A stretch of 63,717 nt of DNA, the filler included, from Craspedostauros australis (taxonomy: Eukaryota), in assembly GCA_030167865.1 (NCBI GenBank). It is 9 parts of 9 records of this genome, joined end to end, with 100 filler letters (N's around TTAATTAATTAA, not from the genome) between each part and the next. Parts side by side here need not be neighbours in the genome. Positions count along the whole stretch, not along the records: positions 7,640 to 15,898 come from JALAGF010006026.1; 8 more parts are not named here. One strand, 5' to 3'. The notes beneath the pieces were generated by a model that saw only the letters and a list, made by a program, of their open reading frames with translations, made no database searches and had not been told where the DNA came from. The translations under genes and the position numbers were made by a program. Below are positions 7,540 through 62,035 of this stretch, in pieces (position 1 is the first letter of the stretch; each line of letters begins with the position of its first letter).

Positions 7540-7639
7540 NNNNNNNNNNNNNNNNNNNNNNNNNNNNNNNNNNNNNNNNNNNNTTAATTAATTAANNNNN
7601 NNNNNNNNNNNNNNNNNNNNNNNNNNNNNNNNNNNNNNN
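7540..7639. other. Artificial scaffold linker N-TTAATTAATTAA-N (also 15899-15998, 34970-35069, 47457-47556, 50944-51043, 53293-53392, 58001-58100, 61936-62035)
   Basis: Identical 100-nt construct at eight positions, with a 12-mer that gives stop codons in all six frames. Confidence 0.97.
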
Positions 7640-9670
7640 CCGTCGTGTTGTTGTATGCTGTCATTGTGGTTGCTGTTATTGTTGTTGTTGTTGTGGTTTG
7701 TGGGGTGGATGGATTTGTATTTTTGTGAGAGGAAGGTTGATCCGCTTTGTGTTGCTTTGCTTCCCATAGACACCACAGAGAGGATGAAGAAGGTGCCAGC
7801 TTGCCGACCCAAGAGCGACAACCTCCGCAATCTGTCATACAGGTTTCAGTCATGGCGGAATACATGCGAGTGCAGAGGACACAACGCCCTGGAGCAGCCT
7901 CAGCCACACTTCCATCCCCAAGCATTGGTCTTGTTCGGCACACAGGAAATACACGTGAGGCCATGAGCGGCGAGTACTCGCAAAACACACGAAGTTGTGG
8001 TGTTGTGTGGTGAAAGTGAGCTTCGTGCAAACGTTTGGAAACATGAACACCGGTTTGTCATGAATTCGTTGCCACGTCCATCCTTGGCGGCCAATCAGAA
8101 GCCTCTATCAGTCTTCCGTCAACACAACTCCAATGATCTCACACCCGACCACGAACAACACGTTACGAAAGACAACATCCCTTCTCCCCACACAAAGAAC
8201 AACAACAACCCGAGATGCACAGTTGGGCGTGCTGGCCGTGGATGACTTATCCTGTCCATTCCAACTGTTAATTGGCTCTCGGAGAAAAGCCCATAAATCC
8301 GCAAACATCATCATCATTGNNNNNNNNNNNNNNNNNNNNNNNNNNNNNNNNNNNNNNNNNNNNNNNNNNAATTGGCTCTCGGAGAAAAGCCCATAAATCC
8401 GCAAACATCATCATCATTGCGCTACAAGTACTCAAGAGAACAAGAACAAGAACAACAAGACAACGGCCCTTCACGACCCAACCAGTTCACATTTTCACCA
8501 AACAAGATGGAGCAAACTGGTTGCAGAGCAACTGCAGAGAGGAGGATGGATCGCCTGCATGGTATGCATGGCGAAGATGGTATTGGTCCGTATGATTGGA
8601 TCCGTATCACCATGATGATGATGATCAGAAGCACGCGAGACGTCGCATTGCCAGCAGTCTATGACTGTGTGCGGGTCTGTGTTCTCGCATTTGCAGCTGC
8701 GGATGCTGCCGCGATCGCCCGCCACAACTGTACGTCATACTCAGACTCAAATAGCAAGGCACACAGAGTCGCTGGTCTTCAAGTGTCGCACGATTGGTGA
8801 CGGTGCTCAAGTTGATGTTCCCTGTCAATGCTCCATCATCATGAAAGCTGCTGGACTACTGGGTTGCATGTACATGCTTCGACCATGTGTAGGTCGTATG
8901 TGTGGGGATGATGAGACGTGCGCATCTATCCGAGTATGAATACCTGTTGAGAGAGAAGAGGAGGAAGGATGGCACGATCAGGAGGATGTCCATGGTTCGG
9001 ACTTGCAGCGCGCGAGTATCGTGCTGNTTTGTGTTGCTTGGCGTGACGGCATCCATGGACTGGTCTGCATGGTGAGAAGTTTTGCGTTGCCACTCTGCCG
9101 TTGCTTGGACCAAAGTATGTGGTATGTGATATGTGATTTGATTTGGGATTGGGATCACCACACAAGACCAACCTCTCCGCGTTCAATGGTGTTGTTGCAT
9201 CAGTACTCTTGCCTCGTTCGTAAGCGCATGTCGAGTGTTTGTGTGTGGGCACCAAATGTTCGCCGTTGGCGTGGACTGGTGAATGACGTGTTTCGACAAC
9301 CAACCAGATCGCTTCTTCACATTTCGGGATTGGTGATTGAGTCTCGTGGGGAGAACGGAGACGATAAGTAACGATTGGTCAAACTGGTGACGTTGCTGTG
9401 AATGGCGATTCTGCATGGAGCATCATGACTCCAACACCCACGTGTTGTTCTTCTCCCTCTGTACAATCTTCTCCATTGTGGTTGTGCTCGTGAATGTGCG
9501 CAACTGTGCGTTGGTGTGTATTCTTCCGATGTCCATCCTCTACTCTCAAAATCAAAAGCAACACAAACACAACAGCCACAACAACCACAACAACAACGAA
9601 GCAAAAGAGGACAATCAGACTCTACCCAATCAACAACAACAGCAATACACACAACACGCACAATACAATC

Positions 9671-10639
9671 ATGAACAGCAGCAACAACAGCAACAACAGC
9701 AAGCCAACCACATCCAGCGTCAAGCTCTCCCTCTTCCTTGGACTCGTCGTCCTCGCAGCACCATGCGCCAACAACCAAGCACAGGCATTCACCACAAGAC
9801 AGTCAACATCAACCAACACCCAGCTCTTCGCCACCATGTTCGAGTCCGAGCAACCATCGGCATCCCGTTTCGCATTCCTTCAGAACGCCAGACAAGCCAT
9901 CGCATCCAACGTGCCACAACAATCATTCCAGGATGCAGCCACACCTGCCGATCCTCTCTGGAGCACCACCGCCAACACTGACGCCACTCCATCCCTGCCA
10001 TCAACGTCGACATCCCGACGTGCATGGATGCATTCCATGGCTGCATTGGCCGTCGCTGCCACATGCACAACGGAACAGAAGCAGCTCAACCTGTCAGACG
10101 AGCAACTGGCACAGATCATCATCAGCGACATCGTCAACAAGNNNNNNNNNNNNNNNNNNNNNNNNNNNNNNNNNNNNNNNNNNNNNNNNNNCATCAGCGA
10201 CATCGTCAACAAGAAGTCGCTCGTCACCGCCGATGTCACCAAATCCATCTACGACGAGCAGGCCACCTTCAAGGATGGATCCGACCTCGACGGCAAGTAC
10301 TACCGCGAGCAATGGGTCCGCGGCTGTCGCATGCTCTTCGACGCAGCTGAATGCGAGTCGCGACTCATCGAGGACACCCTTTCGGTGACCAAGCACGCCG
10401 TGACCTTCCGCTTCGAGGAGGACTTGACATTCCGCGGTCCATTCTCGCCCAAGTGCTTCCTGAGCGGAACCGTCGTCATGAAGCGCTGCCCAGTGTCCGG
10501 ACTGATCAAGTCTTACGAGGAGATCTGGGACAAGGATGTGTCAAGCATCGTGAAGTCTGCGAAGCTTCAGGGTGGCAACCGCATGACTGACCTCTTCATG
10601 GCTCGTCTTCAGTCTTCGGATGACAGCGTCATGGCGTAA
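9671..10639 (+). CDS. Plastid-targeted DUF2358/NTF2-like protein, possibly thylakoid lumen
   Basis: From ATG 9671: hydrophobic signal, AQA-F cleavage motif, Ser/Thr-rich transit region, twin-Arg SRRAW plus a hydrophobic stretch. The core contains LVTADVTKSIYDEQATFKD and GLIKSYEEIWD. Confidence 0.6.
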   Translation: MNSSNNSNNSKPTTSSVKLSLFLGLVVLAAPCANNQAQAFTTRQSTSTNTQLFATMFESEQPSASRFAFLQNARQAIASNVPQQSFQDAATPADPLWSTTANTDATPSLPSTSTSRRAWMHSMAALAVAATCTTEQKQLNLSDEQLAQIIISDIVNKXXXXXXXXXXXXXXXXXISDIVNKKSLVTADVTKSIYDEQATFKDGSDLDGKYYREQWVRGCRMLFDAAECESRLIEDTLSVTKHAVTFRFEEDLTFRGPFSPKCFLSGTVVMKRCPVSGLIKSYEEIWDKDVSSIVKSAKLQGGNRMTDLFMARLQSSDDSVMA

Positions 10640-10994: not shown

Positions 10995-11726
10995 ATGGAT
11001 CCGCTTCAGCTCATCAAGTCGGTGTATTCCACCGGACTCCTCATCTTCTCGATCACCATCGTCTGTGGACTCATCTTCAATGAGCTGACCAAGGTCTCGT
11101 CCGAGGTCCACCCAGTGGTGGCCGTCACCATCATGATCAACGCCCTTGTCTGGCTCAACATGGTTGAGGGAGGACAGGGTTCCCTCGTTGGTCTCCCACC
11201 AGTCGACCGCGACCTCTACGTCGAATCCCACCCAACCGCCCACCAGTGTACCTCCCTCGCCCACAAGGGTGACAACCTCGATCGCTACCTCATGGGACGT
11301 CAGTTCATGGTTCTCCTCATGGTCTTCACCATCAACCAGTGCGGTGCCCCGCTCGCCGATGCCGAGGTCTTCGGACTCCCAGACATCATCATCCAGATCT
11401 TCCTCGGATCCGGAGCCGCCATGATCCTCATGACCGCCATGGCCGGACAGCTCAACTCCCAAGTCAACGCCTCCCTCTGTATGCTTGACTACATCAACAA
11501 CTTCTTCGCCATCTTCACCCTCTATGTCGCCCTCGCCATCGAGTTCTCCGGACTTCTGCACTCGTGCTACCTCGTCCAGATGTTCTTCGTCTGGGCATCC
11601 AGCAAGGAAATCGAGTCAAAGGAACCACCACGTGACGGTGCCCAGAACCTCTTCTACTGGGGCCGCATCCTCATCTCCCTCGCCATCCTGTGCTATGCCG
11701 TGGCTGTCACCCTCGTCGCCCTCTAA
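10995..11726 (+). pseudogene. SIT: Silicon (silicic acid) transporter, N-terminal part (about TM1-6), terminated by an inserted element
   Basis: Motifs VEGGQG, GDNLDRYLMGRQF, GQLNSQVNASLCMLDYINN. The TAA stop at 11724-11726 is the first triplet of the insertion. Confidence 0.93.
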
Positions 11727-12251
11727 TAGAGCTAAACTAGTAACCACCTTAGCAAGAGAGACTACGAATCATCCGACTCGTCAGCATTCCAGTAGATCGG
11801 ACGGACACTTCGCCGAACCCCACGTTTGGAGACAGATCCAGAACCTTGAAGCGGATCTTCNNNNNNNNNNNNNNNNNNNNNNNNNNNNNNNNNNNNNNNN
11901 NNNNNNNNNNNNNNNNNNNNNNNNNNNNNNNNNNNNNNNNNNNNNNNNNNNNNNNNNNNGCATCATCGCCCATTGTCTCTCACAGAACCCAGACAACGGA
12001 TCTCGACCCACGGTACTTGGGCTACACAACCCACACGCATTGTCATACAGGACATCACAGGAGATTCCCCTCGAAGAGAAGAACCATAGCAATAATCTCA
12101 TAATCCGCACGTTTCTTCACCATCTACCAGTATTCTAAATTGACTACTTGTGGAACAGAAGACTCTCATCCGGATTGCTTGCCAGTCAAGCCTCTGCCTA
12201 CAGCTAAAGAACAGCCAACAAGACAACAGCCATTACGTTTGGGCTCTATTA
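11724..12251 (+). mobile_element. ~530-bp non-coding insertion element (solo LTR- or MITE-like), 5-bp TSD CCCTC
   Basis: Ends are TAATAGAGC and GCTCTATTA. CCCTC lies at 11719-11723 and 12252-12256. Removing the element restores GCC CTC TTT GAT GGA (ALFDG). A second copy is at 34172-34702. Confidence 0.93.
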
Positions 12252-12256
12252 CCCTC

Positions 12257-13174
12257 TTTGATGGAAAGACCACCATGTGGGCCAGAGTGCCAAATGGAGT
12301 CGCTGTCATCCTCTTCTTCCTCTTCATGTCCATCGTCGGTATGCTGGAGGGTATGCAGATTGCCTTCTTCGCTGTCGCCAAGCTTCCAAAGGAGGAGCGT
12401 GGAGACCACCCAATGGCACGCAAGACCTGCGAGCTCCTCTTCCAAGGTGACAGACGCAACCTTCCAGGATTCATGATCGGACGTCAGATCTGCGTGACCA
12501 TGTGCTTCTTCATCATTGCCCGTGTTACCACTCTTGATGTCGAGGTCGGAACTGGCAAGAACATCTTCGGAGTCTCCGACAGCACCCAGGAATTCTTCAA
12601 CACCGGACTTCTTGGAGCCCTCATCACCACCATCATCGCCTCCATCACATGGCAGCTGGTCGCATCCGTCTTCCCCATCGCCTTCCTCTCCAACCCAATC
12701 GTCTACATCTTCCTCCAGTTCTGTCTGTTGTTGGAAGCCACCGGTATCTGCTCCGGAGCCTGGGTCCTTGCCTCCATTCACAAGGCCGTCTCTGGCTTCC
12801 AGCTTGATGAGGTGTACATTGGCACCCCAGAGGAGCGCGCCGCCGGCATGAAGCCAGACCACCAGAGCAACCGCAACATGCACCTTGGAACCAACATGCT
12901 TGTCGGCGAGGCAGGTTCTACCGCCGTTCCACGCGAGTACCTCGAGCTCCAGAAGGCTTTGGCTGCACAGAACGAGTCTTACTCCGTCCGCCGTGAGCGC
13001 ATCCTGTCGAACATCAAGGGACTCCGCGAGAAGATCAACTCGTGCAGCAACGACGACGACTCCGCCGTCTTCGAGTCTGCCCTTCGCATGGAGACTGCTG
13101 CCATGAACAAGCTGAACCAGGAGGAGAACGACAGTGCCGCCGAGAGTGACGAGGAGAAGGGTGTGCAGAAGTAA
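12257..13174 (+). pseudogene. SIT: Silicon transporter, C-terminal part (about TM7-10 plus coiled-coil tail)
   Basis: Motifs FDGKTTMW, LEGMQIAFFAVAKL, FMIGRQICV, FPIAFLSNP, DEVYIGTPEER. The frame is intact, with an in-frame ATG at 12275. Confidence 0.93.
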
Positions 13175-13609: not shown

Positions 13610-15784
13610 TCAAGCAAGAGTGGTCAAGTAGTCGACAACATCAGTGTGGCTCTGTTCTTTCGCAATGTCCAGCGCAGTGAAGCCATCGTAATCTTTGATG
13701 CTGATGTCTGCGTTGCACGATTCCACCAAGTACTTCACGACCTTCAATTCACCATTCCAACTTGCCCGACAAAGCGGAGTTCTGCAATAATTGTTTTGAA
13801 TGTTGACATTTGCGTTGCAGACTTCCACCAAATACTTCACGACCTCCAAGTTGCCATTTGCGCTCGCAAGGTGCAGTGGAGTGCCGCCATAATTGCTGGT
13901 GTTGATGTTGATATCTACCTTGCCTTGTTCAACCAACGACTTCACAACGTCGAGATTCCCAGCAATGCTTGCGCGATGGAGGACGGTGGAGCCATCCTCG
14001 TCTTTCACGTTCAAATCGACATTAGGTGTTCCGATGAGATACTTGACAATGTCGACGTGATTGTTATGATGTGCCTTGAAGATTGGAGTCTCGTGTTTGT
14101 CGTTCTCAGCGTTGATGTTGGCTTTGCCGGATTCAACCAGCCACTTCACAACATCGAGATGGCCATCGCCACTTGCGAGATGGAGCACGGTGTTACCATC
14201 CTCGTGTCGGGGGTTGGGATGTATGATCGATGTTCCGATGAGATACTCGACAACATCGAAGTGGCTGTGGCAATATGCCTTGTAGAGGGGAGTCTCGCAC
14301 TCATGATTCTCACCGTTGATGTTGGCTTCGCCTGATTCCAACAAATGCTTCACAACATCGAGATATCCATCCGCGGTTGCAAGATGGAGTGCAGTGTTGC
14401 CAGCCTTGTTCTCTGCGCTGACATCGATGATCGCGTTGCCCGAGTCCACCAAATGCTTCACCACATCCAGATGACCTCCGGCACTTGCGCAGTGAAGGGC
14501 AGTGTCGCCATCATTGTTCTTGGCGTTGCCATCCACCTTCAGATCGTCTGACTTCAACAAGTACTCCACCATACCTAGATGACCTCCAACACTTGCGCAG
14601 TGAAGGGCAGTGTTGCCATTCTCGTCCTTGATATTGATGTCCACCTGACCTGACTCCTCCAACCATTTCACAACATTCAGATGACCTTTGGAATATGCAG
14701 ACTGAAGAGCCGTGCCACCAGCATCATTCTCAACATGAACATCTGCCTTGCACGACTTCACCAGGTACTCTGCAACATCCAGATGGCCATTTCTGTACGC
14801 AACATGAAGCGCGGTATCGCCGTCATTGTTCTGGACGTCGATAGCCACAGCACGAGCCTCCATCACATACTGCAAGATATCAAGATGACCCTTCAGACAC
14901 GCATGGTGGACCGGAGTACAGCCAAATTCGTCTTGCACATTGATTTCCACTCCATGTGATCCAACGAGGTATTCCACAACATCCAAACGCCCACGAAGAC
15001 ACGCGGCATGGAGGGCATTCTCACCCTTCTCATCTTGCACGAGAGCGCTTGCAGAATGTGACTCGATCAGAGTCTTCACGATGGCCACATTTCCCTCGGT
15101 ACATGCGTCGTGGAGTGCAACCTTACCGCAGTTATCCTGGAGGTTGACATCTGCAGCATGTGACCCGGCCAGGTATTCCACAACCTCGACGTTGCCCTGT
15201 GCGCATGCATAGTGTAGCGCAGTCTCTCCATCCATGGATTGGGCATTGATGTTTGCTCCGCATGACTCCATCAACTGTTGGATCGTTTCAAGCTGGCCGT
15301 TGGAACATGCGAGGTGGAGTGAAGTCTTGTCGCGGTCATCCTTGATCGCGTCGATGGAGGTTTGTGGAAATTCCATCTTCCATGCGGTGAGGATGTCCAC
15401 ATCTCCTTGTTCTGCGGCGCGCAGAAGATCCTGGTCGGTGACGGTCGGGTTGGATGCATCACCAGGGGTCGACTTGAGCGAAAGGAGAGATGACCATTTT
15501 GCGGTTTGTGTTGACGAAGCCCGGAGGTTGCGCAATGGTGAGGTGGACAGTATAGCGAGTCGTGGAAGGATGAAGACCATGATGGAGCTGGCGTGTTTCG
15601 AGATGGAACGGCTTGTTGCTGAGATCAGATCAATGCGACGGTTTTTTCGATGTGATTTGAATGATTGTTTGGCTGGTCGTAGTCGCTTGATCGCATCTCT
15701 GTTTGCCTTTATGAGGCTGGTGGTCTGTTTCATGGTCATTGCTGGTGGTATCCCGTGCTCCGTTTCACCCAGCGTGCATGGCAT
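13610..15784 (-). CDS. Ankyrin repeat protein (many tandem repeats)
   Basis: Repeated G.TALH.A...GHLDVV.YL units of about 34 aa. The true start may be at 15580. Confidence 0.92.
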   Translation of the reverse strand: MPCTLGETEHGIPPAMTMKQTTSLIKANRDAIKRLRPAKQSFKSHRKNRRIDLISATSRSISKHASSIMVFILPRLAILSTSPLRNLRASSTQTAKWSSLLSLKSTPGDASNPTVTDQDLLRAAEQGDVDILTAWKMEFPQTSIDAIKDDRDKTSLHLACSNGQLETIQQLMESCGANINAQSMDGETALHYACAQGNVEVVEYLAGSHAADVNLQDNCGKVALHDACTEGNVAIVKTLIESHSASALVQDEKGENALHAACLRGRLDVVEYLVGSHGVEINVQDEFGCTPVHHACLKGHLDILQYVMEARAVAIDVQNNDGDTALHVAYRNGHLDVAEYLVKSCKADVHVENDAGGTALQSAYSKGHLNVVKWLEESGQVDINIKDENGNTALHCASVGGHLGMVEYLLKSDDLKVDGNAKNNDGDTALHCASAGGHLDVVKHLVDSGNAIIDVSAENKAGNTALHLATADGYLDVVKHLLESGEANINGENHECETPLYKAYCHSHFDVVEYLIGTSIIHPNPRHEDGNTVLHLASGDGHLDVVKWLVESGKANINAENDKHETPIFKAHHNNHVDIVKYLIGTPNVDLNVKDEDGSTVLHRASIAGNLDVVKSLVEQGKVDININTSNYGGTPLHLASANGNLEVVKYLVEVCNANVNIQNNYCRTPLCRASWNGELKVVKYLVESCNADISIKDYDGFTALDIAKEQSHTDVVDYLTTLA

Positions 15785-16869
15785 TCCGTTGATGACTGTT
15801 TCACGATGTTTTTCGTTTCACATTGTTACCGTGATGTCGCTGTGATCACCCGATCTACTTTGGCATCAACGTGAACATCAGCTTGAGCATTGGCTTGANN
15901 NNNNNNNNNNNNNNNNNNNNNNNNNNNNNNNNNNNNNNNNNNTTAATTAATTAANNNNNNNNNNNNNNNNNNNNNNNNNNNNNNNNNNNNNNNNNNNNAG
16001 AATAGGTACCTTCATGACCTCCTAACCCATCCAATATACGTTTTAAGAATGTAGTTCTTCTACATATATCTAAAGGAAGTATATGGTAAGGCCTCTTAAA
16101 GTTTATATCAGGATCGCAGATGCGACGCCGACTTTGGTGTACTATTTTGGCTCAGGCGGGTCATAAACACCTCGTTCTCTTCTCGTGTGGTGCCAGGAGA
16201 GATGATTGGGACGCGTCCACTTGAGTTGAATGCCGCGCTTTTGTTTGGACTGGCACAGACAATCGCTGCAGGTCTCGAGGACGGTGGTGCTCCCAGGCCA
16301 TACACATGTGCGGGAATGCACCATCGCCACTGTGTGCCGGTGTTCCGTGGGTGTGGTCGTGCGAATGAGGTCGTCCGCAATACATATACCGGACCTCGGT
16401 TAGTTGTATGGGATGTATATGTCCTTGGTTGGATGTGGGCTCGCGGCATCGAAGCAAACAGGACATCAAATGCAGCTGGTTTCGACAGCCACATCTTGGG
16501 TTCGTGTATGACGAAGCGCTGTGATCGATCGGCGAAAAAGTCCCAACACACAGTGCCCTGTTGTCGAAATGTCAGGCTTCGGTACCTGGACGCAGACCTC
16601 TTCGTCTGCGCGAGTCTGCGACGACGTGTCTCATCTTTTTGCCCGTCAATCCATGGCCACATCCATAAAGACTCGGAATGGGCTACTCCGCTCTGCCACG
16701 GCACGACAAAACACCATCCCATACGAGCTAATACCCTGGCACACCGTCCGATTATGATGCGTACCGTACCTACGATGTTGCTGTCTCTCTCTCTTTCTCT
16801 CTAGAGAGAGATTCTATGCTCTACTCGTGCAAAACTACTCTATGTATAATAGAAATGTCATGCCATCCA

Positions 16870-18867
16870 CTACTTTTGCCCAGCCCCGTACGTCGGGGCT
16901 ACGGAGGCTGCTTCCGTTGCTCTCGCTGCAGTTGGTTTTGTTTCCGTTTCCGTCATCGCGGCTGATGGAGATGCTGTTTGTCTTTGGCGCTGTGCTTGGA
17001 TCTGCATCGCCTGTCGTACACCGCGGAGAGCTTCAGTTTCGATCTTTGCTCTCGGTGACATATGAGGTTGTTCAACAGCACTTGTAGCGTGGGCATTCTC
17101 CGCATGAAATAGATCGTTGCGATCATGCTTGGTCAATGATTCCCATTCCTGAATATCTGGCAACGATCCATCATTGGATGCGAGTCGATCGTACTGTGAC
17201 GGGATGTGGCCGCTTGAACTCTCGCTGCTGGTTGGAAACGGTGAAGTGATTGGTGGAGAGGGAATGCCGTCGAAATTGCTGCTGCCTTCTAGTATTGGTT
17301 GGGATGCTGATTGGCGCGTTGCGATCCAACTGGTGGTTGAACCGAAGAGTTGCTTGGCATGAGGCACCGCCGAGGTGAGGATTCGACGATTGTCAGCGCT
17401 TCGTTTGCCATGCTTGTTGAATTCGGTGCTGTAGCTTGTCTGTAACCCGCGATGTGCTCCATCTTTGCCTGGTGGCAACTGGCCAAAGTTGCTCACCAAG
17501 TGTGCAAGTCCGCCTGTAGTCGTAGTAGTCCGGTCGCCGAGCAATGCTGTATGCCCTTGCGGCTGCTTTGGTTCCATCCCTGGTACCATCGCATGCTGCA
17601 GCTTGTGAATGTTGAACTGTTGCTGCAAGGGTAACTTGTCAGTGGAACTTCTCATCGCACTTTGTTGCTTCTGCTCTTCCATGGCACCAGTATCCCTTGG
17701 TGTGACGGAGTCTAGCCCTTGCAAGGTCGACATAGGATGCGTGTGGACGCTTGATTGAGACCTGCTGTGTTGCAGTCGAGCTAGAGCCATCTCTGTCCTC
17801 CCCGCAGCACCTTGAGTGCCACTATTCGCTTGCACTGCATCGGCTTGGATAGTCGTGACCCCTGCACGATCTCCCCCCGACAAAATTGATGCATTCCGTG
17901 TGGCCTCCTGTGATGTGAGGGATGAAAATGGATTCATAAGCTGGGTTGGCTGAGTCGATGCTGATGTTGGCATTGGGATTGACCCCGACAATGGTACTGG
18001 AAACGGTGCTGGCAGAGGCATGGCTCTGCCATTCCACACGGACGCTGATGGGATGGGATCGAACGTGGATTTCATGGCATCGATGCTCCCGCCCGCCACG
18101 TTCAGCTGTTGGGGGTCCAGGGCAGATGTATGAAAATGGTTTGGTAGACCATTGTTCACGTCTGCGCGGCCATTCGATGATTGAATCACCGACGATGATC
18201 CTCCTGCTGCTGTTCCAAAGTTGTACCCCGCTCCTCTGAAGCTGCTACCGCCAGTCGATGATAGGTGCGATTGTGACGTGCCAGAAGCCATCGGCATCAT
18301 CAAGGATGTTGTCGCTTGCCCCATGTCGAGACTCGATGCCAATGCATCGTTTTGGAGGTTCTGCGGAGGCAATGGCAGCGATGACGACGGTGGTGGAGAT
18401 ATCGACGTTAAATTCCGGCTCGACGTCGCGCTTGTCATGGACGTAAGACCATCGATGGATTGGGCAAAGGAAGGAACAATTGTGATGGAAGTATCCTGGG
18501 TAGGGAGGGCCCCGCCGAGGCCAGACTGCTTCGAGGTTGCCTGAGACGATTCGTTCTTGGTAACCTTTTTGGGCGTCATCTGCTTGCACAGCTCTCGGTC
18601 CCACTCCACGAACATGTCGTTGCGATACCCACCCTTGTCAGGCCCCTCCCGTATCCGATCGAAGGAGTAGATGTACAGCTGGCGTTGGAAGCTCTTGAAT
18701 TTGGATTGTCTGAAGTACCGTCTCATGATAGTCGCTTCGAATACTTTGGGTTGGTGCACACGAAACGACATGCCGTCGCTTGACCATGAGATGACATCGG
18801 TGATGTTCTCCTTCCTGGCCTGTTCCAGCATCATGTGCAGCTTCAGCGGGAATGGTGTGCGGTTCAT
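16870..18867 (-). CDS. Heat-shock factor (HSF) family transcription factor
   Basis: HSF DNA-binding domain PFPLKLHMML...VISWSSDGMSFRVH...YFRQSKFKSFQRQLYIYSF followed by a long disordered region. Start uncertain; the frame is open to 19149. Confidence 0.9.
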   Translation of the reverse strand: MNRTPFPLKLHMMLEQARKENITDVISWSSDGMSFRVHQPKVFEATIMRRYFRQSKFKSFQRQLYIYSFDRIREGPDKGGYRNDMFVEWDRELCKQMTPKKVTKNESSQATSKQSGLGGALPTQDTSITIVPSFAQSIDGLTSMTSATSSRNLTSISPPPSSSLPLPPQNLQNDALASSLDMGQATTSLMMPMASGTSQSHLSSTGGSSFRGAGYNFGTAAGGSSSVIQSSNGRADVNNGLPNHFHTSALDPQQLNVAGGSIDAMKSTFDPIPSASVWNGRAMPLPAPFPVPLSGSIPMPTSASTQPTQLMNPFSSLTSQEATRNASILSGGDRAGVTTIQADAVQANSGTQGAAGRTEMALARLQHSRSQSSVHTHPMSTLQGLDSVTPRDTGAMEEQKQQSAMRSSTDKLPLQQQFNIHKLQHAMVPGMEPKQPQGHTALLGDRTTTTTGGLAHLVSNFGQLPPGKDGAHRGLQTSYSTEFNKHGKRSADNRRILTSAVPHAKQLFGSTTSWIATRQSASQPILEGSSNFDGIPSPPITSPFPTSSESSSGHIPSQYDRLASNDGSLPDIQEWESLTKHDRNDLFHAENAHATSAVEQPHMSPRAKIETEALRGVRQAMQIQAQRQRQTASPSAAMTETETKPTAARATEAASVAPTYGAGQK

Positions 18868-21800
18868 TTGGTTGCTACGACACCGCACCGTCCCCGTCAA
18901 GTCTGGGACGCTGGAATGGTTGTTGAGTTGTGAGTTGTGAATGGCGGCTATCGTCGTCGTGGTTGGCGTCGTCTCGGTTGACGTTCGTGTGGGGGTTGGC
19001 TGTAGTAGCGATATCGTCGTTCGTGAGGTGAAGGTCCGACCGATGTGGAGATTCGATATGGAAGTCGGAATGAATGTGATCGTTGCAGAGTATTGGATTG
19101 TTGTGGACTGTCTTGGATCGTTCTCGATCGCTGTTACCACTGCAAACAATCCTCCCGCACTCGATCGGGGACTGCGATCAATGATGTGGGCGTATTCTTC
19201 AACGTGCTGATGTGCCCCTGGGATCAGTCAGAGAATGTACGAGCTGTGGTACGAGTACGCGTATGTCAGCTGCGGGCAAGGACCGAAGGTACGATACGTA
19301 CCACACACACGCACACAATAACGGCGCCCCTGCACGTTGAGACAGGACCAAATGCAAAAAGTCGAGTTGCGCGCACGAGAGTCGGCGGAAAGCGGCGACT
19401 GTCCGATTTGCGGGACGGTGAATGGATGTGGTGCTGATCTTTCTTGTTTGTCTGAGGGAGGTTTTGGGGATGTCCGTGCCCGAATGGAATCGCTGTTGTT
19501 GTTTGCTCTCTGTGGTGTGCCAGTTGACATTGGTGTTGATGTTGACGTTGATGTTGACGTGGCCTTTGGTTGTGCTGTGGCTGTGCCGTGGACACCTCGT
19601 ACATACGAGTATGCATCAAAAGTCGCTGATGGTCAAGATTCCTTCGTCGATGGATGACTTCTCTCTTGGTGTTGCCGTTGCGTGATTTTGGTGGCTTGGC
19701 TTTTTGTTGGCGGACGGGCAAGTGCCTCTCGCCACGCGCCCGCGGATGAACGGGTGAATGGACGGGTGAGTGAGTTTACGATGTATGGATGAATGGGCGG
19801 GGGTTCACGGTTGGTGACTTTGGTTGACATTGTTGACTTCACCGGCAGTCTTCTGCATCGTATGGTACGAGCTACGAGTATGCCGTCGGCGTGTACGAGG
19901 CACGGTACAGCACGGCACTCGTATGGAAAGTGTGCGTGGTGTGCAGCTGTTGACTTGTTCGTGGTTCTTGTCACTTTTGTGACTATTTGTACCTGCCTTC
20001 TCCTCCCAAGCCAAGGGGAGTGATCCTGGCTTCTTCGTTGTTCTCGCGCCGCCCTGCTCCGCCATTTCTTCTTCCTCTTTTTTCGCTCTTGTCCACGATT
20101 TGCGGACGCCCAAAAAGCAACAACAAACAACGGATGGGGACGGGGAAAGGGCACCGGCTGTTGGTGGAGCGTCGGTGTTGCGCACGTTGACTGACCACTC
20201 CTCAGCAGGTCAAAGCAGAAGGTCGTCTACGAGTAGAGTACGAGCTAATCCTATTGACACTGACATAGTCGTTCTATACGACTCCTGTGATGTTCTTCGT
20301 CATGTTTTCTTGTGTGCTCTATGTGCGTGCCCAGATGCTGAGATGATCTTGAAAGTAAATGCATAACTCAGACCTCTCTCGGCATCCCGCTTCGGATGCA
20401 ATGGCACGACGCTACAATGGCCATGCATATATAAAGCACTCGCACCGACTCTACTTTAATAGCTCGCATGATATTGTATTGATTGTATAATATTGTACAA
20501 TACTTTGCAATTTTATATAGAATAATTCTATTACATGTTACGCAACGAGCATGTATGGTACCATGCGAACATATAATATGTTGTGGCTTGTTGGTATGGC
20601 GAGAGCAATGAGCAAGTCCTTGGTGTCGCACGAACTGGGAGCACTCCCCCATCTGAGTGGTGCATTTGCTCGTATTGCACACCATGGCACCCGCATGCGC
20701 GCTGGTACGGAGAGGGCCGACACAGCAACTGGAGTCAGTTCGAACTCTTCTGACGATTCCTCTACATCGCGCTGTAGTCTCGCAACAATCACGCATAATA
20801 CAAGTGCAGTGGCTCGGATGTAGAGTGCTGCCACGGCGACCTCTCCTTTCCGACAAGAGAGGAGAGACAGAGTCTGGCCGCGCTGTGGGGGAGAAGAAAA
20901 TAAAGTGGACGACGAGCACAATCGGAGCGTGTGGTGAAACGTTTTTGCTGCCGCCATCGCCGGTTCCTCGGTGGCACTGTCGCTACTATGCCCAAACGTA
21001 CGCGACCAACTCCGAAGCGAACCACCGCATAACACCATCACAACAGGCCCCCAACACACCACCACAATGACAAAGTGCAATTGCCACGATATTTCTGTTG
21101 TTGAGGCATTATGCATTCTACTTTCTGTGAAGAGGAACAAAAAGTCTGATTGAAGCGCGCAGTTAACGAGGTGCCTGTGGCGCGGGTTCCTAAAGTACTA
21201 TTGTTGGAACGTGATGGCGTGAAGCCACACGAAACCACAAGGAAGAAACCAGAGAATCAGTGCCGCAACTTGATCAACATCAAACCGATAATTGAATGAT
21301 AGCAGGGCGTCGGATCCCGCTGCATTCATGTCCGCCTGAATACATATGCCATTGCGATGTGTGTTGATCTTCTCTGATGCATCGTCGATTCTAGTCCTGT
21401 CGACATGTCGGAGTAAGCGCATTGAATGTGTGTAATACACACGAGCGGTCTCCGGATTGGCTTCATGTTCCAATGAACCAGCCACAGGTTGTTCACTTCT
21501 CATCATCGCCTGTGCTGTCTAACGAGGACGAGTGGAGTCTGTACATCAGCAAACCACCCCCGACGAATACACCAATACAAGTGCATATCTTTTTTATTCT
21601 TCGTTGCGCAGCATCGATCACACATCACACCAGCCCGGCCAAAGGAGGCCTGTGATGCCGCACTCGCACACACAAATGAAATCAGACGCACTGCAAGTGT
21701 CCGAGGAGCGGCGCGGCATTTCGCACCATCGCCATTGTCAGTTCCAGGGGCGGATTTGGAGCACAACGGTCTGCACCTTTCGCGAACGATGTTGTTTCAG

Positions 21801-23280: not shown

Positions 23281-24569
23281 ATGGCCACCATTGGGATTCA
23301 GGAGTTGCCGGATGTCTTCCACGATGTGACTCCGGTGCCTCAGAAGGACGGACCGGAGCCTGTGTGCGCGATCGCATACCCACAGGTCTTCACGACGGCA
23401 TATGACTACATGAGGGCCATGTGGCAAACGAAGGAACTCAGCGGTAAGGGTCGGTTGTTGTTCATCGGAGGGGAATCATTGGCTGTCACGTTGAATGCCA
23501 TGACGCACTCACGAACCGCCATGCTATGGAGATGGATGCCTCGTGCAATACGTACGAGTATGCGTGGTTTCATGCTGATATGCTGATATGCTGATGGCTG
23601 CATCACAGCATCATCATGCTCTTGCTCTGCTATCCTACCATTGTTCTAACTTTACTGCTTCTTGGTATTCTGTGACTTGCGTATGTATTACTTCACACTT
23701 CCAATGGTGTGCGTTTGTGTCTTTGGTGTTCAGAACGATCACTTCGGCTGACGGGGCTGTGCCTGCGGTTGAATCCTGCGAATTACACCGTCTGGCATTT
23801 CCGGAGACAATGCCTGTCCGCGCTTGGCCGCGCGGAGGACGGCGGCACGATCCAGCAGGACCTCGACCTCGCAGCGTCGTTGGGCGGGGACAATCCCAAG
23901 AATTACCAGATATGGTACCACCGACGCGCGCTGCTCGAGAAGTGCCCGTCGCTGAAGGATTTTGTGAAGAGCGAGCTGGAGTACATCGCGGACGTCCTCG
24001 ATGAGGATGGCAAGAACTACCACGCGTGGTCCCACCGCCAGTGGGTGGTGTCGGCAGCCAATGACGAGGAGCAATGGAAGAGCGAGATGGACTTCGCGAA
24101 GCGGCTCATCGATGACGACCCCAGAAACAATTCTGCCTGGAATCAGCGTTGGTTTTCGGTGCACCGTGGAAAGAAGGATGCGCTGACCTATGAGGTTGCG
24201 AGGGGAGAGTGCGATTTTGCCATCGGAGCCGGGGCCAACCTGGATCCCTTCAACGAAAGCCCGTGGAGATATTTGGTGGGCATCGTGAAGGAGCAATGGC
24301 GAGTCGACAAGACGACGGACCTGGTCGAGGAGTACGAGACGCAAGCGGCGGGGCTGCGTGCGATGTTGACGCAGGCCGACAAGTCACCAGACAGCTGCGT
24401 GAACCTGACTTCGGCGCGTATCGATTTATTGGAGATGAAGGGCGACAAGGCAGCGCTGGAGCTGGCAATGGCCCTATGCAAAGGGTTGATGGAGGAGCAC
24501 GATCAGATACGGTGCAAGTACTGGAACCTTCGAATCGATGAGATGGCGGCCAAGTGTCGTGCTCTGTGA
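23281..24569 (+). CDS. FNTA: Protein farnesyltransferase/geranylgeranyltransferase-I alpha subunit; exons 23281-23443 and 23734-24569
   Basis: Exon 1 contains DVTPVPQKDGPEPVCAIAY. The GTAAG...CAG intron at 23444-23733 splices in frame to give ELSERSLRLT. PPTA repeats: NPANYTVWHFR, PKNYQIWYHR, KNYHAWSHR, PRNNSAWNQR, PFNESPWRY. Confidence 0.95.
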
Positions 24570-28887: not shown

Positions 28888-31800
28888 TGATGCGGAGCGG
28901 AGTGCTTCCTCTGTTGATTAGGGTGTTTGAGTTGTTTGTTGGTTGCCTCTTGCGGATTGAGGCGAGGGAGATGTTTGAGGTGTGTGGAGGGGTGATGTTA
29001 TGGCTGTTTGGTTGCTTGTTGGCTGGGGGTGGCTCGTTCTTGGTTGCTGGTTGCTGGATGGTCTGTTTGTGATTGTGTTGGTTGGGTTGTGTGTCTCTCT
29101 CTCTCTCTCTTTCTTGCCACCCGTCCCCGCTTGCTTCTTTCCTTGGCGTTTTGGTTTGTTTGTCTCCTGTTCGTGCTTGTGTCTTGCTGTTCGTCGTGGT
29201 CCGACCTACGGGAACTGGACGATTCTCTCTCTCTCTTTTGTTTTTGTACCATGTTTTGCCCTGTTGTTTCGGGTGCCTCCTGCTCTGTTTCCCGCGCAGG
29301 AACCAGTACTGCGTTAAATCACGGACCCTTGCAAAGTACACGCGTGTGCCAGCGAAGTTCTGGCACGAACACGAAACTGAATACACAAGCCACAGGAGCT
29401 ACCTGACCACGAGCCACGCGTAGCCGGTTAACAGCCCCCGTGTCTTGTTTTGGTTTTGGTTGTGGGATTGTTTCGTCGCCACCGCGTATCGCGTGCTCTG
29501 TCTTGGTCTTGTCCAAGATGGTTGTGAGGTAGGAAGTGGGTTGTTGGTTGGTTCGGGAATTCCGTCGAGTTGGTAGTGTTCGACTTTTTTGTTTGCTTTG
29601 CCCTTATGTCCACGCTAGTCGTCCTTGTACCCGTTGATAATAAAGGGATTGCCGCATGCCAACGCCTACGATTTCGGTTGCAACTAAGACTTTGAAAATG
29701 TCACTCCAGCCAGTGCGCGAAAGAACAGACAAGGCGCGTCTCGTAGACACCACACAAGGAGGTGGCAAACGCTGCGTTATGAGTCGAAGGACACAACAGG
29801 ATGACCACGGAATCTTGGGGGTGGATAAATCGAAGCGCTGATCCTATCAAGGCGCCATCGCCTTTCAATCGTAGTCACGAATAACAATGACTACAGAAGG
29901 TTAACTCTCTTTCGCCGCGAGGAAGCTTTCAGCAAGGTGGAGGCATAAGTGCAGATCATCGATGGCATCGATTGCCGCCTTGGATCACTCGCCCGTGTTC
30001 CATTCAGTGCGACATGTCCATTCACGGGTTCATCGTCCGCAAGATGTCTATCGCTCACATTTTTTGCGCACATCTATGTGCACTGCAGTGCACAGACTAA
30101 CTCTCGATTACGGACTCCAAGATTTCCGGGATGATCTGATTGTTCGTTGCGTTCGTGTGTGTGCGTGTGTGTTGCCACATCTTCGTCCACTGGTTGGAAC
30201 TTGCGAACTATCTGGACCACGAGTCCATGAGTATGCACAGAGTCCCCTCAACTCGCACCCATGCCACGCTGACACACATCTCGCGCGTACCACAACAACA
30301 AAGTCGTCGTTGGATCTGCGCGGCGGTGGCCCTTGTTCGTGGTCGTTGGGCTTTGAGCGATCATGGTGAGAGACATTCTCAGAATCCTGGAGGCTAGTTG
30401 TTTGAATGCTGCAGGCCATGGCGGAAGAAAGTACCTGCCACATCAGGAAAGGGGACAGAATCTGGTCCAAACAGGATGCAGACGCTGTTGTCATCAACAC
30501 AACGCGACTCCCTCCCTCCCCAGTTCCGATCCACGGTGCGGATACGCAGCACAAGTATTCTGTCAGGGTGCTGCAGCATGACTGTCACAGGTATGCCGAT
30601 CAGGAGCGCCATGGTGGAATGCCGAGGTATAACTCGCTTCTCATTTTCTGCTCGCCAGGCACGAGCATGCGAAATGCATACATCCGTGTGTGGCTGTGCC
30701 TGGCGAGGGTGGTACGAGTACACGATAAGACCATACGGCTACTCGAACTGTAACTTGCATCACATGAGCGCCATCTCCGATCGGCGAGCGACGAACGACG
30801 AGTACAAAGGAGAGTCCCCTCGACCAGATGCAGCTGCACCACACGAAATGTGATCTCGACGACGGTGTCATGAAAGAGGCAGAAAGGGATGTTCGTCAAC
30901 AATTGTCTCTGGACTCCACTGTGATTCAAGGAAAAGTCTCAGTGCTTCTGTTCTGTCCTCACCCCTTCGTGGCCACCATGTCCATGTGGTGCTCATGTTG
31001 TCGTTTGACCGACGCTGTTGGCTACTTGTACTTCTGCGGAAGGATGTCATGTTTCTTGATAGTATCATCAGGTAGAGGCATCGTCGCGGCAGAATCAAGA
31101 ACACAACCTGCACCACCACAGTCATCCAATGCCGATTCTTTGTGCCACAACTCTGCCATGCGTATTAGAGGGGTTCGAGTGGCTATTTTTTGGCATGGCC
31201 GGCGACCCCAGCCAATCAAATGGCTTAGACTTTATCACTTCGACGAGCAAGCCATCCCATTGAAGGGTGAATTGAGGGGAGTTTGGGTCAATTTTCCCCA
31301 GCTTTGTTGCGCTTGGGGTTCTCATTTGGTACCGTGTGACGCAGACGATCTGTTCCGTGTCCGATTGATTCTCGTTGTGAACGCTGACAGAGGTGGCGGG
31401 ATTGCGTGGTTGGTTTCGCACGAGGAATTGTGGAACTTTGACACTTTCTCAGAAATCACGTATTGAGCAAATAAACTGCAANNNNNNNNNNNNNNNNNNN
31501 NNNNNNNNNNNNNNNNNNNNNNNNNNNNNNNACGTATTGAGCAAATAAACTGCAATTATTTACGTGCAGTATCTCCGTTTGAGTATCTCCAGGTGACAAA
31601 CTGCATTGTCGTAACTGAACGACGATTCCGACCGATACGTTCATGATATCGTTGCGATGGGACTATCGTATGCTCAGTATTGTTGTCGTTTAGTACTAGT
31701 ATTACCGCAATAGTACCAAGACATACGCAAAATTGACAAAATTGTTTTCTACAAAATCCCAACAAAACAAGGACAGAAGTGTTCCTTTGATGTGAACGGC

Positions 31801-32493: not shown

Positions 32494-33288
32494 TGTCGAG
32501 ATGTACATGCGTGTATATGTCAAGATGTACGTGTATATGTCCATTGTTCACCTGTTATTCTCTTATTCATGTACGGACGGTACAACTACATTCGTGTCAA
32601 TTGTATACTGTGATTTGTCAGAATCACAGTGGAAATGGAATACATGAAAATGAGCAGAATTTCTGGAGGAAATTTGCAATCGACGATTTCTGAGAGAATT
32701 GGAAATATCGTCTGTCCATCCATCAATGGTACCGAGAGAATCTCGAGGTACTTCCCAACTAAACCTCAGATGACAATATCATCTGACAGACTGCTGCATC
32801 ACCAATGGAACGTGACATCTGGAGAGCAGAAGGACGCCTACTGACGTCAACAGGATGTCACCATGTCACCACGTTGACATCTGTCTCTATGTCAGAAGCA
32901 GAAGGTGAAGATTTGATGACCAAAGGGCATCAAGATCATGGATACACGAGATGGAGTTCAAGTGGCAAGCGCTCATGGAGTAGAAGTCAGTAGTGAACAA
33001 ATGGAGTGTCAAATGTGGAGTATGCATTGAACACGGAGTATCATGTAGCATGAACATGCAACATTGAGAAGAGAGAGAATACGAATAGCAGCAAGAGAGC
33101 ATCTCGCGTACCAACTCATAGTCGGAGACCAATCTACNAAACACAGAGACGCGCCAAGAGCATTGGGCAAGAGAACGGAGACACAAAGAGGATTGGAGTG
33201 CTCAAGGAATGAAATAGCAAACAGAACAACTATCAACCAACACCGTCTTCCACGATCGCAAGTTATCCGTCCACGGAACTTGCCAACA
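32494..33288. mobile_element. Solo LTR, family B (~800 bp), diverged copy
   Basis: Ends TGTCGAGATG...TTGCCAACA, colinear with 46390-47198. No clear TSD. Confidence 0.8.
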
Positions 33289-33870
33289 TGTGTGCTCTGT
33301 TCTCTGGATACTCTGGTGTTGCAGATTTGTAGCTTGTTGGTTGTTGCTGATTGCTGATTGCGGATTGCTTTGCAGTAGGTTTGATGTTCAATGCTTGATG
33401 CCTTGCCTGCTGCTGGTTGCTTTCTCCTGGATCCTTTCCATGGATTTGTTGTTTGTGGCTGCATGCTCAGCTCTCTNNNNNNNNNNNNNNNNNNNNNNNN
33501 NNNNNNNNNNNNNNNNNNNNNNNNNNNNNNNNNNNNNNNNNNNNNNNNNNNNNNNNNNNNNNNNNNNNNNNNNNNNNNNNNNNNNNNNNNNNNNNNNNNN
33601 NNNNNNNNNNNNNNNNNNNNCAATTCACTACTGCTTGCCAAATGACATCTGGCAAGGATCACTGCTGATGCATTGATAGTTGGTGGTGGCAGAATACTCT
33701 GATCAATGCTCAGCCGTGTGTGAAGTTGTTGGGTGTGATCAGAAGCTCTCCAGCTGCTGTCTGGAGCCGCCCACTCATTGTTGATCGTTGGCAGATGTTT
33801 CAGCTCCTGCCTCATGCTGTGTTCTGATTGGCAAGTTGTTTCAGAACACAGAATGCAGTCTGCATGTTGA
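33289..33870 (-). repeat. Old degenerate repeat, inverted homologue of about 55360-55780
   Basis: Shared blocks such as gcaaccagcagcag..atcaagcat, actgcaaag, caacaccagagta and catttggcaa.cagtagtgaa. Confidence 0.65.
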
Positions 33871-34171
33871 ATAATGCTGACGAATTCATTGTACATTGGT
33901 GTCTGGCAGATGCTTCGCTGGATGCTTTGCCTGCTGTTTTTGCATTGGCAATGTGTGGTCTGATGAGATGGTGAAGACAGAGCAAAGGAACAATGGATAC
34001 ACCATGCATGCCCACTTCGATTGTTGCAAAGGATGATGGTGTCATTGCTGAAATGATCAGTGACGTAAGCATAGCATGACAAGTCCATGACTTGGTGCAC
34101 CGCACATCTGCGACAGTCAGGAGGTTCTGCAATGAATGACAACTCTGTTGCTTTGCTACAGTGAGGAAATG

Positions 34172-34702
34172 TAATAGAGCCCAAACGTATTGGCTGTTGT
34201 CTTGTTGGCTGTTGATAGCTGTGGGCAGAGGCTTGATTGGCAAGCGGTCCAAACGTGAGTCTTCAGGATCACAAGTAGTCAATTGAGAATACTAATGATG
34301 GGTGAAGAAACGTGCAGATTATGAGATTAGTGCTAAAGTTCTTCCCTGCGGGGAGGATCTCCTGTGGTGTCCTGAGTGACAGTGTGTATGGGTCGTGTAG
34401 CCCAAGTACCATGGGTCGAGATCCCTTGGCTGAGTTCCGTGAGAGACAATGGGTGATGATGTGCGATGCCGGGGCACTGTTTCCATGTGTCGGCGTTTTG
34501 GCGATGGTGGGTGTCAGTGGCTTGGTTATCGGAACTCTTCTGGTTCCTTGACACGGGTTCCAAAAATCTTCTTCAATGTTCTGGATCTGTCCCCAAACGT
34601 GGGGGCCAGTGAAGTATTCGTTCGATCTACTGGAATGCTGACAGGTCAGACGATTTGTAGTCTCTCTCTCTCTCTAAGGTGGGTACTAGTTTAGCTCTAT
34701 TA
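34172..34702 (-). mobile_element. Second copy (531 bp, inverted) of the TA-ended element, 5-bp TSD AAATG
   Basis: TAATAGAGC at 34172 and GCTCTATTA ending at 34702. AAATG lies at 34167-34171 and 34703-34707. The reverse complement is colinear with 11724-12251. Confidence 0.93.
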
Positions 34703-35069
34703 AAATGTGTGACGGATCCCATCAGGTTGTCCACTACAGCTGGGACAGTCCTTGTTTGGTGTGATGTGAGACAGGATGGAGCATCCCCCAGGTGTCGATA
34801 CTATCTATCTCTAGAGGCACATTGGCATGGCATGGCATGGCAGGGATGGATAGATGGATGGGTGTTTGTTGAGTGCCAAGTCTGTCACGGCTGAGTATGA
34901 GAGGGTGGGAGACTGTTGTGTTGGAGTCTATTTGTTGTTGGGGATTGTTTGTTGGCATGGCTTGGGTTCNNNNNNNNNNNNNNNNNNNNNNNNNNNNNNN
35001 NNNNNNNNNNNNNTTAATTAATTAANNNNNNNNNNNNNNNNNNNNNNNNNNNNNNNNNNNNNNNNNNNN

Positions 35070-38800: not shown

Positions 38801-40362
38801 TTGCTGCTATCAAGCTCAAATCCAAGTCCAAAATCGAAAGCAGCACGACAATCGCTGTCAATACCATCGACGCTGTCACAACTACCACATCTACAAGTAC
38901 AGCTGATGACACTGCTGCTACCGCAATAGCCACATCTGCAAGTACAGCTCGCGGTATCGAGGCAACCATGAGGACAACTGTTGGCATCATCACCAAGGTC
39001 AACAAGAGCACGAAACGCCCAATCAAGGCAAAATGCGGAAGAAAGGCGAAGAGGGCTGTGGGAAGGAAGCCTGTTGCGAAAACGCCAGAACAAAAAACAC
39101 GAGCGAAGAGAATGGCGCAGAGAGCAAAACACAGACGCATCAAATCCAACGCGTTTTTGTTCGCGAAGCGAAAAAGTGAGGACCAAGCCATCAAGAACCG
39201 CGGATCAACGCCACCATCAAAACTACCCAAAATCACGCAGTGGCTGTTCACAGAAGCCCAGACCGGCAAGAGTCCAGTGGATGGCCACTTTGGCATCGTG
39301 GGCAACGTTCTAAGACGAGCCATCAACCGCACAAAGGGCGCAAAGGGGTTGACAGAGAAAGGTATCTACACCAACCTCATCAAGCACAAGATCAAGGGGA
39401 CAATCATTGTGCTTGCGCATGCTGGCAAGTTGAAGGGCACCACCGTCATGCAATCCGATGGACTCGAAAACAAGCCATTTCGAACAGAAGAGATTCCCTG
39501 CCGAGGTGTGCATCAGGTGGACTTTCGCGATGGCAGCGCTGTACTCACATCATCCTCTGGTGTCACCGAGCCAGAGATCATCGATCAAGAAAAGCTGGAC
39601 AGCTACGACATCCAAGACCTGCAAATACACTTCGAAAGCGACGAAATCAAAGAGATCGAACCTGCCTTCGTGAAGACGCCAGGTGAAGCCAAGTCTCTGC
39701 CAACATACGCAACACGCACGTCACGCGCTCGCGGCAAGCCTGATACTCCAAAAAGTGCTGTTCTTCGCAATCTCGTCACAAATTGGGTCTTCGATTTCAT
39801 CTCACAGCCACGCCCTGGCGACGAAGCCAACACTGTCACAGTTGAGCAGAAGGTCGAGGCTCCTGACTTTGTCGAATCGGGTTGGGCAATCACGTATACC
39901 AAAAAGGCGAGTACGAAAGCGACCACGAAGACAGCAGCCACGAAATCAACTGCAAATTCATCGTCATCATCAGCAGCATCATCGGCGGCACCATCTGTAT
40001 CAGCATCGCCAACTGTGAAATCGTCATCGAAGCCACCTGCCAAATCAACCGTGATGCACCCCAATGTGTCGTCCTCTTCGGAATCCAAACCATTGTGGGC
40101 ATCCGAACAAAAAATCAGGATGATGTCACCCACGAAGAAGAAGAAGACGCCACAGCTATCTGAAAAGGTCCGAAAAGCTGCGTGCGAGGNAATCNAAGAA
40201 AGCAAAGACAGNACNGACAGGATCACNTCGTATGCTNTGTNTGAATGGTTGATGGAAAGGGTNATGAANTATGATTGGGAGCAGAGNGTGTCNATCCAAG
40301 CCTCCTTCTTCAAATCGTTTCTGAGAAGTGGCGAGAAGAACGCCGAGTCCTCCACAGAATAG
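35892..40362 (+). mobile_element. Large DDD transposase-like ORF, Sola (Sola3-like) superfamily
   Basis: Catalytic-type blocks TIDHKCKLLP..KETQSDFFGKAGMSLLG (D at 38434), FQSDNASCF (D at 38689) and EAQTGKSPVDGHFG (D at 39280). There is an N-terminal Cys cluster. The start is ATG 35892 once the gap overlap is collapsed. No TIRs were located. Confidence 0.65.
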
Positions 40363-47456: not shown

Positions 47457-47556
47457 NNNNNNNNNNNNNNNNNNNNNNNNNNNNNNNNNNNNNNNNNNNN
47501 TTAATTAATTAANNNNNNNNNNNNNNNNNNNNNNNNNNNNNNNNNNNNNNNNNNNN

Positions 47557-50943: not shown

Positions 50944-51043
50944 NNNNNNNNNNNNNNNNNNNNNNNNNNNNNNNNNNNNNNNNNNNNTTAATTAATTAAN
51001 NNNNNNNNNNNNNNNNNNNNNNNNNNNNNNNNNNNNNNNNNNN

Positions 51044-52961: not shown

Positions 52962-53100
52962 TCAGCGCTCGTCTCGCTTCTCGTCTCGTCCTCAATCACG
53001 CGTGTGAGAGGGTATTCTGCCACTTCAGTCTCTTCTGCTCATTCAGCGCCTCGCGCTCTTCGTTTCGTCCTCGATCACCGGTGTGAGAGGGTATGCTAGC
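52908..53100. repeat. ~80-bp imperfect tandem repeat (about 2.5 units) spanning the gag start
   Basis: gtcctc(g/a)atcac..gtgtgagaggg occurs at 52908, 52988 and 53067. Confidence 0.85.
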
Positions 53101-58000: not shown

Positions 58001-58100
58001 NNNNNNNNNNNNNNNNNNNNNNNNNNNNNNNNNNNNNNNNNNNNTTAATTAATTAANNNNNNNNNNNNNNNNNNNNNNNNNNNNNNNNNNNNNNNNNNNN

Positions 58101-61935: not shown

Positions 61936-62035
61936 NNNNNNNNNNNNNNNNNNNNNNNNNNNNNNNNNNNNNNNNNNNNTTAATTAATTAANNNNNNNNN
62001 NNNNNNNNNNNNNNNNNNNNNNNNNNNNNNNNNNN

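Follow-up and report, generated by a model that had tools for sequence, protein, structure and literature searches.

A silicon transporter gene in two parts

The window, that is, the whole stretch of DNA analysed here, is 63.7 kb long and consists of nine Craspedostauros australis contigs (assembly GCA_030167865.1) chained via artificial linkers of the form N44-TTAATTAATTAA-N44. The contig at 7640-15898 (JALAGF010006026.1) carries a silicon transporter (SIT) locus, in which one SIT gene lies on the plus strand in two parts, at window positions 10995-11723 and 12257-13171. The 5' part (10995..11723, 243 codons), delimited by Pfam, alignments to 12 and 18 full-length SITs and hydropathy, encodes the N-terminus and TM1-TM6; its frame starts with the ATG at 10995, has ...LVAL as its last residues (up to 11723) and then meets a TAA stop at 11724-11726. 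The 3' part (12257..13174, 305 codons plus stop), delimited by Pfam and alignments, begins with FDGK at 12257, encodes TM7-TM10 and the C-terminal tail, and ends with the TAA stop at 13172-13174. These limits and contents are those that the original prediction had given for a split SIT, and its view that both halves are free of stops and frameshifts was borne out, none being present in either.

The two parts fit each other without any remainder. When compared with the Pfam Silic_transp profile (PF03842; cut-off 26.8 bits), the 5' part matches profile positions 3-245 (E 2.7e-114, 382.8 bits) and the 3' part positions 246-510 (E 2.7e-123, 412.4 bits), the two matches being exactly contiguous at 245 and 246; because they abut, the break has neither removed nor added anything. 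When the parts are aligned with 12 full-length single-domain SITs, no residue is missing or extra at ...LVAL / FDGK..., and together they make up 548 residues, a length within the range of single-domain relatives (547-571). All four motifs of the original prediction were located: EGGQ at 11166-11177 (residue 58) and GRQ at 11295-11303 (residue 101) in the 5' part, and EGMQ at 12347-12358 (residue 31) and GRQ at 12479-12487 (residue 75) in the 3' part, residues being counted within each part. Two EGXQ-GRQ motif pairs, one characteristic of the SIT family, are therefore found across the two parts taken together; a further characteristic, one uninterrupted coding sequence, is lacking, since the parts are kept separate by the 528-nt insert and the stop codon TAA (11724-11726). 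Judged from its sequence, this is a SIT of family PF03842 that has been disrupted. Diatom SITs, e.g., that of Cylindrotheca fusiformis (P0108), have the full PF03842 profile, the two EGXQ/GRQ pairs and a length like that found here, but the Craspedostauros locus carries a 528-nt element and a stop after residue 243, and none of 78 related loci is interrupted there.

A tblastn search of the 63.7-kb window with both parts as query found no other SIT copy. The closest full-length protein (P0074) is identical at 186 of 242 residues of the 5' part and at 224 of 304 residues of the 3' part. In the protein collection searched, we found neither a protein identical or near-identical to the 5' part (best 64%) nor a full-length relative of the 3' part above 73%, and no intact-allele protein or deposited gene model for the locus was present in it. 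Among solved structures, a sequence search gave no match to the SIT with an E value of 1 or less.

Two start codons near the beginning of the 3' part should be mentioned here. In an ATG scan, the in-frame start nearest to the element on its 3' side is at 12275..12277 (plus strand), within the CACC-ATG at 12271-12277 that had been pointed out before; a product begun there would have 299 residues. This start is preceded, at a distance of 14 nt, by an out-of-frame ATG (12261) that opens a frame of 71 codons and did not appear in the original prediction.

The inserted element and its possible class

The insert is a non-coding mobile element of 528 nt as assembled (11724..12251, plus strand), whose limits are given by homology to a second copy that ends exactly at both termini. 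It opens with a left terminal inverted repeat, TAATAGAGC (11724..11732), and closes with the exact reverse complement, GCTCTATTA (12243..12251), the 9-nt pair being 100% complementary. Immediately outside these ends, the target-site duplication CCCTC is found in two copies, as seen both in the sequence and in the alignment of the element copies: the left one (11719..11723) also belongs to the last codons of the SIT 5' part, and the right one occupies 12252..12256. Once the element is taken out together with one of the CCCTC copies, the SIT reading frame is whole again. The first three bases of the element are the TAA (11724-11726) that stops the upstream SIT frame, exactly as had been claimed.

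The second copy, which is ungapped and 531 nt long (34172..34702, minus strand; identified by blastn, sequence and alignment), lies on another contig of the window, is 83-85% identical, has the same two termini, and is flanked by its own 5-nt target-site duplication, CATTT, at 34167-34171 and 34703-34707. When two mismatches were allowed, the 15-nt terminal motif occurred in the window only at the four ends of these two copies; shuffled sequences gave an expectation of 0.10 chance matches, and none of 100 shuffles reached 4. The insert is a real mobile element, beyond chance, and the earlier statement that a transposon had inserted is upheld by the perfect 9-nt repeats, the 5-nt duplication and the second copy with the same ends. 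The GC content of the element is 0.48 and that of the SIT gene 0.57-0.58. No ATG occurs in the assembled part of the element copy at the SIT locus; the only ORF of at least 110 codons wholly inside a copy (34272-34673) has no Pfam match. A 43-nt pattern from the right end of the element gave 0 matches in the metagenome contigs.

The element copy at the SIT locus contains an assembly gap of 99 N (11861..11959, from the listing of N runs), a feature that had not been described earlier. In the ungapped copy, the blocks matching the flanks of this gap are separated by 101 nt, so the gap size fits, and the insert should be short and not a hidden full-length element.

With a gap inside the element, and with a fragmented draft in which contigs are joined by artificial linkers and gaps are numerous, several of them lying between duplicated sequences, it must be asked whether the insertion is an artefact of assembly or cloning, i.e., a repeat misplaced between the halves of an intact gene, or a host-derived clone insertion. 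Both gene-element junctions lie, however, in contiguous sequence, and the perfect 5-nt duplication restores the frame, which a chimera would not produce; the gap size also agrees with the ungapped copy. No match to the element was found in E. coli genomes, which argues against an insertion sequence of the cloning host, and the other copy differs by 15-17%, which points to an endogenous repeat family. Because the junctions are contiguous, the duplication restores the frame and the gap size agrees, we still think that the insertion itself is real, and we consider an artefact highly improbable.

Two classes of element may be considered for the insert, a solo LTR and a MITE. MITE-like DNA transposons with terminal inverted repeats agree with the present element in small size, absence of an ORF, perfect inverted repeats, a fixed-length duplication and the presence of more than one copy, a comparison that rests on two element copies. 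Both copies, of 528 and 531 nt, combine the inverted repeats and the duplication with small size and no coding capacity, as is usual in MITEs. A 5-nt target-site duplication is unusual among DNA transposon superfamilies, and no autonomous relative with the same ends and a transposase was found within the window.

For the LTRs of diatom Ty1/copia-like (CoDi) elements, passages of PMC2806351 give lengths of 153-844 bp, short inverted repeats (8 nt at most) at the termini, and ACAAG as an example of a 5-nt target duplication. CoDi solo LTRs thus agree with the Craspedostauros element in the 5-nt duplication (CCCTC, CATTT), the length of about 530 nt, the non-coding nature and the short inverted repeats (PMC2806351). 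They usually have TG...CA ends, whereas the element found here has TA...TA ends; because TG/CA termini, present in 23 of the 26 diatom families listed in that source, are lacking in 3 of the 26 (PMC2806351), the TA...TA ends lower the probability of a solo LTR and do not exclude it. PMC3701649 mentions a family of plant LTRs beginning with TA, and solo LTRs predominate in Phaeodactylum tricornutum strains according to part of a 2025 preprint. No full-length element with two such repeats flanking gag-pol was found within the window. On balance, we slightly favour a solo LTR over a MITE.

The window also contains a copia-type gag fragment (51103-52587). The contig on which it lies (51044-53292) shows no similarity to the element, the score being 24 against 21.5 +/- 2.2 for shuffles, and a link between the element and this fragment was rejected because the similarity is at the shuffle level.

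Conservation, empty site and the position of the break

To which state the locus had belonged before the insertion can be seen from related sequences. Contigs from metagenomes and metatranscriptomes yielded 80 related SIT loci; the nearest of them is 66% identical, a distance too great for dN/dS of the separate halves. All 78 loci with both parts reaching the junction are contiguous at the break with zero gap, and the other 2 of the 80 are incomplete. Contigs of a nearer relative, about 90% identical, were found in one sequencing run (X1), in which 18 of 19 aligned pieces are less than 95% identical. One contig of this run aligns from 12254 onward and has a 31-letter loose end, and this loose end matches window positions 11690-11719 at 25 of 30 letters by eye, in register with an uninterrupted gene; by this match, the relative reads across an empty site. 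Since the relatives are uninterrupted and the X1 contig crosses the site, the ancestral state was the empty site. That the X1 contigs give no cover over the element itself carries no weight, as they are those of a relative. In the comparison of the SIT with X1, 40 of 165 differences were classified; they affect 31 codons, of which 16 are changed synonymously and 15 nonsynonymously. As a partial sample in which X1 may represent a relative or a paralogue, this count was set aside as a measure of constraint.

Another check is to examine whether the two parts have begun to decay. From 18 full-length single-domain SITs we defined 176 invariant columns, of which 174 are unchanged in the SIT locus; it deviates by a change from G to S in the 5' part and one from G to R in the 3' part. 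In a leave-one-out control, the reference SITs themselves miss 0-11 invariant columns. Because 174 of 176 columns are kept and neither part shows decay, the insertion looks recent. The same intactness also fits a locus that is still functioning in some way or still under selection.

Where the break lies with respect to the internal repeat of SITs is important for judging such a remaining function. In PMC5100055, SITs are described as having 10 TMDs, with motif pairs at TMD2 and 3 and at TMD7 and 8, and SIT-Ls, in the passages concerned, as having 5 TMDs and one EGXQ-GRQ pair. A Kyte-Doolittle scan of the 5' part showed five clear segments and a weaker GRQ helix below the threshold used, and in the 3' part the hydrophobic stretch was read as four segments. 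Hydropathy thus gives about six hydrophobic segments before the break and four after it, in line with the earlier estimate of 6+4 TM. The 3' part from its first residue aligns to the 5' part from residue 28 (26% identity, E 1e-07), which indicates that the internal repeat starts after TM1 and again after TM6. The break lies after TM6, one helix past the 5+5 repeat boundary, and the 3' part is without the first helix of its repeat.

The fragments were also considered as equivalents of the half-size SIT-Ls, which they resemble in having one motif pair each (PMC5100055). This assignment was rejected: because SIT-Ls have 5 TMDs and the break yields 6 and 4 segments, the fragments should not be their equivalents, and both align as halves of ordinary diatom SITs. 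In the parts of PMC5100055 dealing with them, SIT-Ls form a native lineage of stand-alone genes, whereas the pieces found here are those of a typical diatom SIT and would have been made by insertion.

The layout bears directly on the proposal that the locus works as a split gene, with TM1-6 expressed from the native promoter and TM7-10 plus the tail (299 residues) from a promoter in the element, the fragments either reassembling or acting each in a SIT-L-like manner. One EGXQ/GRQ pair is retained in each part without stops or frameshifts, an in-frame ATG is present 24 nt past the element, 5-TMD SIT-Ls with one motif pair do exist (described in sections of PMC5100055), and the element, if it is a solo LTR, could carry a promoter. 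But the intactness of the parts is equally expected after a recent insertion, the division is into 6+4 segments and not along the 5+5 pseudo-repeat, so that the 3' part starts without the first helix of its repeat, the out-of-frame ATG at 12261 comes before the in-frame one, and not one of the 78 relatives is split at the break. A simple scan of the complete element copy found no TATA-like or other recognisable promoter signal and no AATAAA, which also speaks against this proposal. We regard a functional split gene as extremely improbable, and the same holds for the specific case in which a solo LTR or another promoter-bearing repeat drives the 3' part and the TM1-6 and TM7-10 fragments reassemble into a working transporter, which is exceedingly doubtful.

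A near-full-length SIT might also be made if the element were tolerated as a new intron and removed imprecisely or by non-canonical splicing. Intron-creating transposons are known in some marine protists, and in-frame GT...AG pairs do exist at the locus, e.g., a donor at 11715 with an acceptor ending at 12229, the use of which would swap 3 residues for 9. However, the 13 GT sites in 11500-11726 all lack an extended donor motif such as GTAAG, GTGAG or GTATG, GT-AG ends cannot remove exactly the element plus one copy of the duplication, and the ends of the element are without splice signals. Tolerance of the element as an intron is therefore, in our estimation, very unlikely. As for the class of intron-generating transposons ('introners'), the element was tried as a member and rejected, there being no GT/AG pair for its precise removal and all nearby donors being weak.

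Probable insertional knockout of a SIT gene

We hold it to be probable that a non-autonomous element of about 530 nt has recently knocked out one SIT copy or allele by inserting into it. Of the two readings that had been offered originally, this one stands, with the precise insertion and its duplication, the 78 of 78 uninterrupted relatives and the 174 of 176 invariant columns; the other, a working split gene, could not be upheld, the break being off the 5+5 boundary, a promoter signal being absent from the scan and the out-of-frame ATG at 12261 preceding the in-frame start.

Under a knockout, the locus would have been a normal intronless diatom SIT gene of 548 codons. The element of about 530 nt would have entered it behind the Leu243 codon, where TM6 ends, with duplication of the target CCCTC. 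The TAA of the element would terminate translation, and for this reason at most a 243-residue N-terminal fragment (TM1-6) would be made, while the SIT 3' part would be left without a promoter of its own. Because only the TM1-6 fragment would be possible and the 3' part would have no promoter, the result would be a null or pseudogene SIT copy, or one such allele. Loss of function of this SIT, as well as the recency of the insertion in absolute terms, is what we infer from these observations, and the loss would presumably be tolerated, with an intact allele or further SIT copies making up for it.

Such a loss would be in keeping with what is described of the family. Most species have 3-5 SIT copies, and in Thalassiosirales 62 duplications and 72 losses of SITs were inferred, according to passages of PMC10700740 on the turnover of this family. 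A possible SIT pseudogene of P. tricornutum was suggested from its divergence and low expression (in a portion of PMC2758714). The process behind the disruption reported here is an ordinary one, of which this locus offers a clean example that looks datable. As regards the element, a heterozygous insertion of the retrotransposon Blackbeard in Phaeodactylum tricornutum (described in part of PMC2806351) is a comparable case of a mobile element in a diatom genome, and by analogy an empty-site haplotype may exist also in Craspedostauros; unlike the Blackbeard case as presented in that source, the Craspedostauros insertion sits inside a SIT coding sequence. Within the open-access full-text literature searched, we found no description of a SIT gene that a mobile element had broken.

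If the knockout is true, the locus would provide a snapshot of SIT gene loss under way, in which the mechanism is still visible. It would also mean that a mobile element family of Craspedostauros australis has moved recently enough that the disrupted SIT shows no decay, and the insertion shows that this family can land in coding sequence. Should the split-gene proposal be true after all, a transposon would have split, in nature, a transporter that arose by fusing two half-size units, and we would have a direct handle on the cooperation of the SIT halves. Annotations should list the locus neither among the intact transporters nor as a pair of SIT-L genes. As what would be a natural SIT mutant allele, it could be typed by PCR across the insertion site in cultures or populations.

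Silicon transporter units among relatives

Many of the best longer matches among the proteins recovered in the protein-collection search with the 3' part of the SIT gene (P0001-P0073) are SIT proteins of 1100-1660 residues, which carry several transporter units per chain; their sources are pennate diatoms and environmental contigs. SIT units are commonly found fused, whereas fission such as that at 10995-13174 is not common.

The second copy of the element and the retrotransposon fragment

When the second copy of the mobile element was excised in silico together with one copy of its 5-nt duplication (34167-34707, minus strand), one frame read through the junction without a stop for 419 codons, with about 34 codons lying upstream of the junction and 385 downstream. 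The downstream ORF (33012-34262) gave no Pfam match. This site may represent a second gene or 5' region struck by the same element family as the SIT insert. The ORF at 51103-52587 (minus strand), on a short contig of 2.2 kb, matches the gag domain of copia-type elements (PF14223, E 2.2e-13); it is a retrotransposon fragment whose sequence is not related to that of the SIT insert.

Other genes and open frames

Directly downstream of the SIT gene is a large ankyrin-repeat protein (13613-15817, minus strand), and the window also holds an HSF-type DNA-binding protein (16873-19227, minus), a protein prenyltransferase alpha-subunit repeat protein (23676-24566, plus) and a TRM5/TYW2 methyltransferase (1-1128, plus). 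A very long open frame of 1436 codons with scattered N (36052-40359, plus) had no Pfam match.

Linkers, gaps and a possible foreign gene

The nine contigs are chained by eight artificial linkers, each composed of 44 N, TTAATTAATTAA and 44 N (7540-7639, 15899-15998, 34970-35069, 47457-47556, 50944-51043, 53293-53392, 58001-58100 and 61936-62035), and genes on either side of a linker need not be adjacent in the genome. An identical flank of 10-25 nt stands on both sides of several N gaps, of which five are 50 N long (10142-10191, which lies inside an ORF, 8320-8369, 31482-31531, 38017-38066 and 52277-52326) and one is 4 N long (55045-55048). These look like unclosed overlaps with a few codons doubled, and therefore assembly artefacts rather than biology. 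An ORF matching DUF1501 (60425-61363, minus strand; PF07394, E 8.5e-18), a mostly bacterial family, is located on a contig of 3.8 kb that contains several gaps, and may stem from contamination or from gene transfer.
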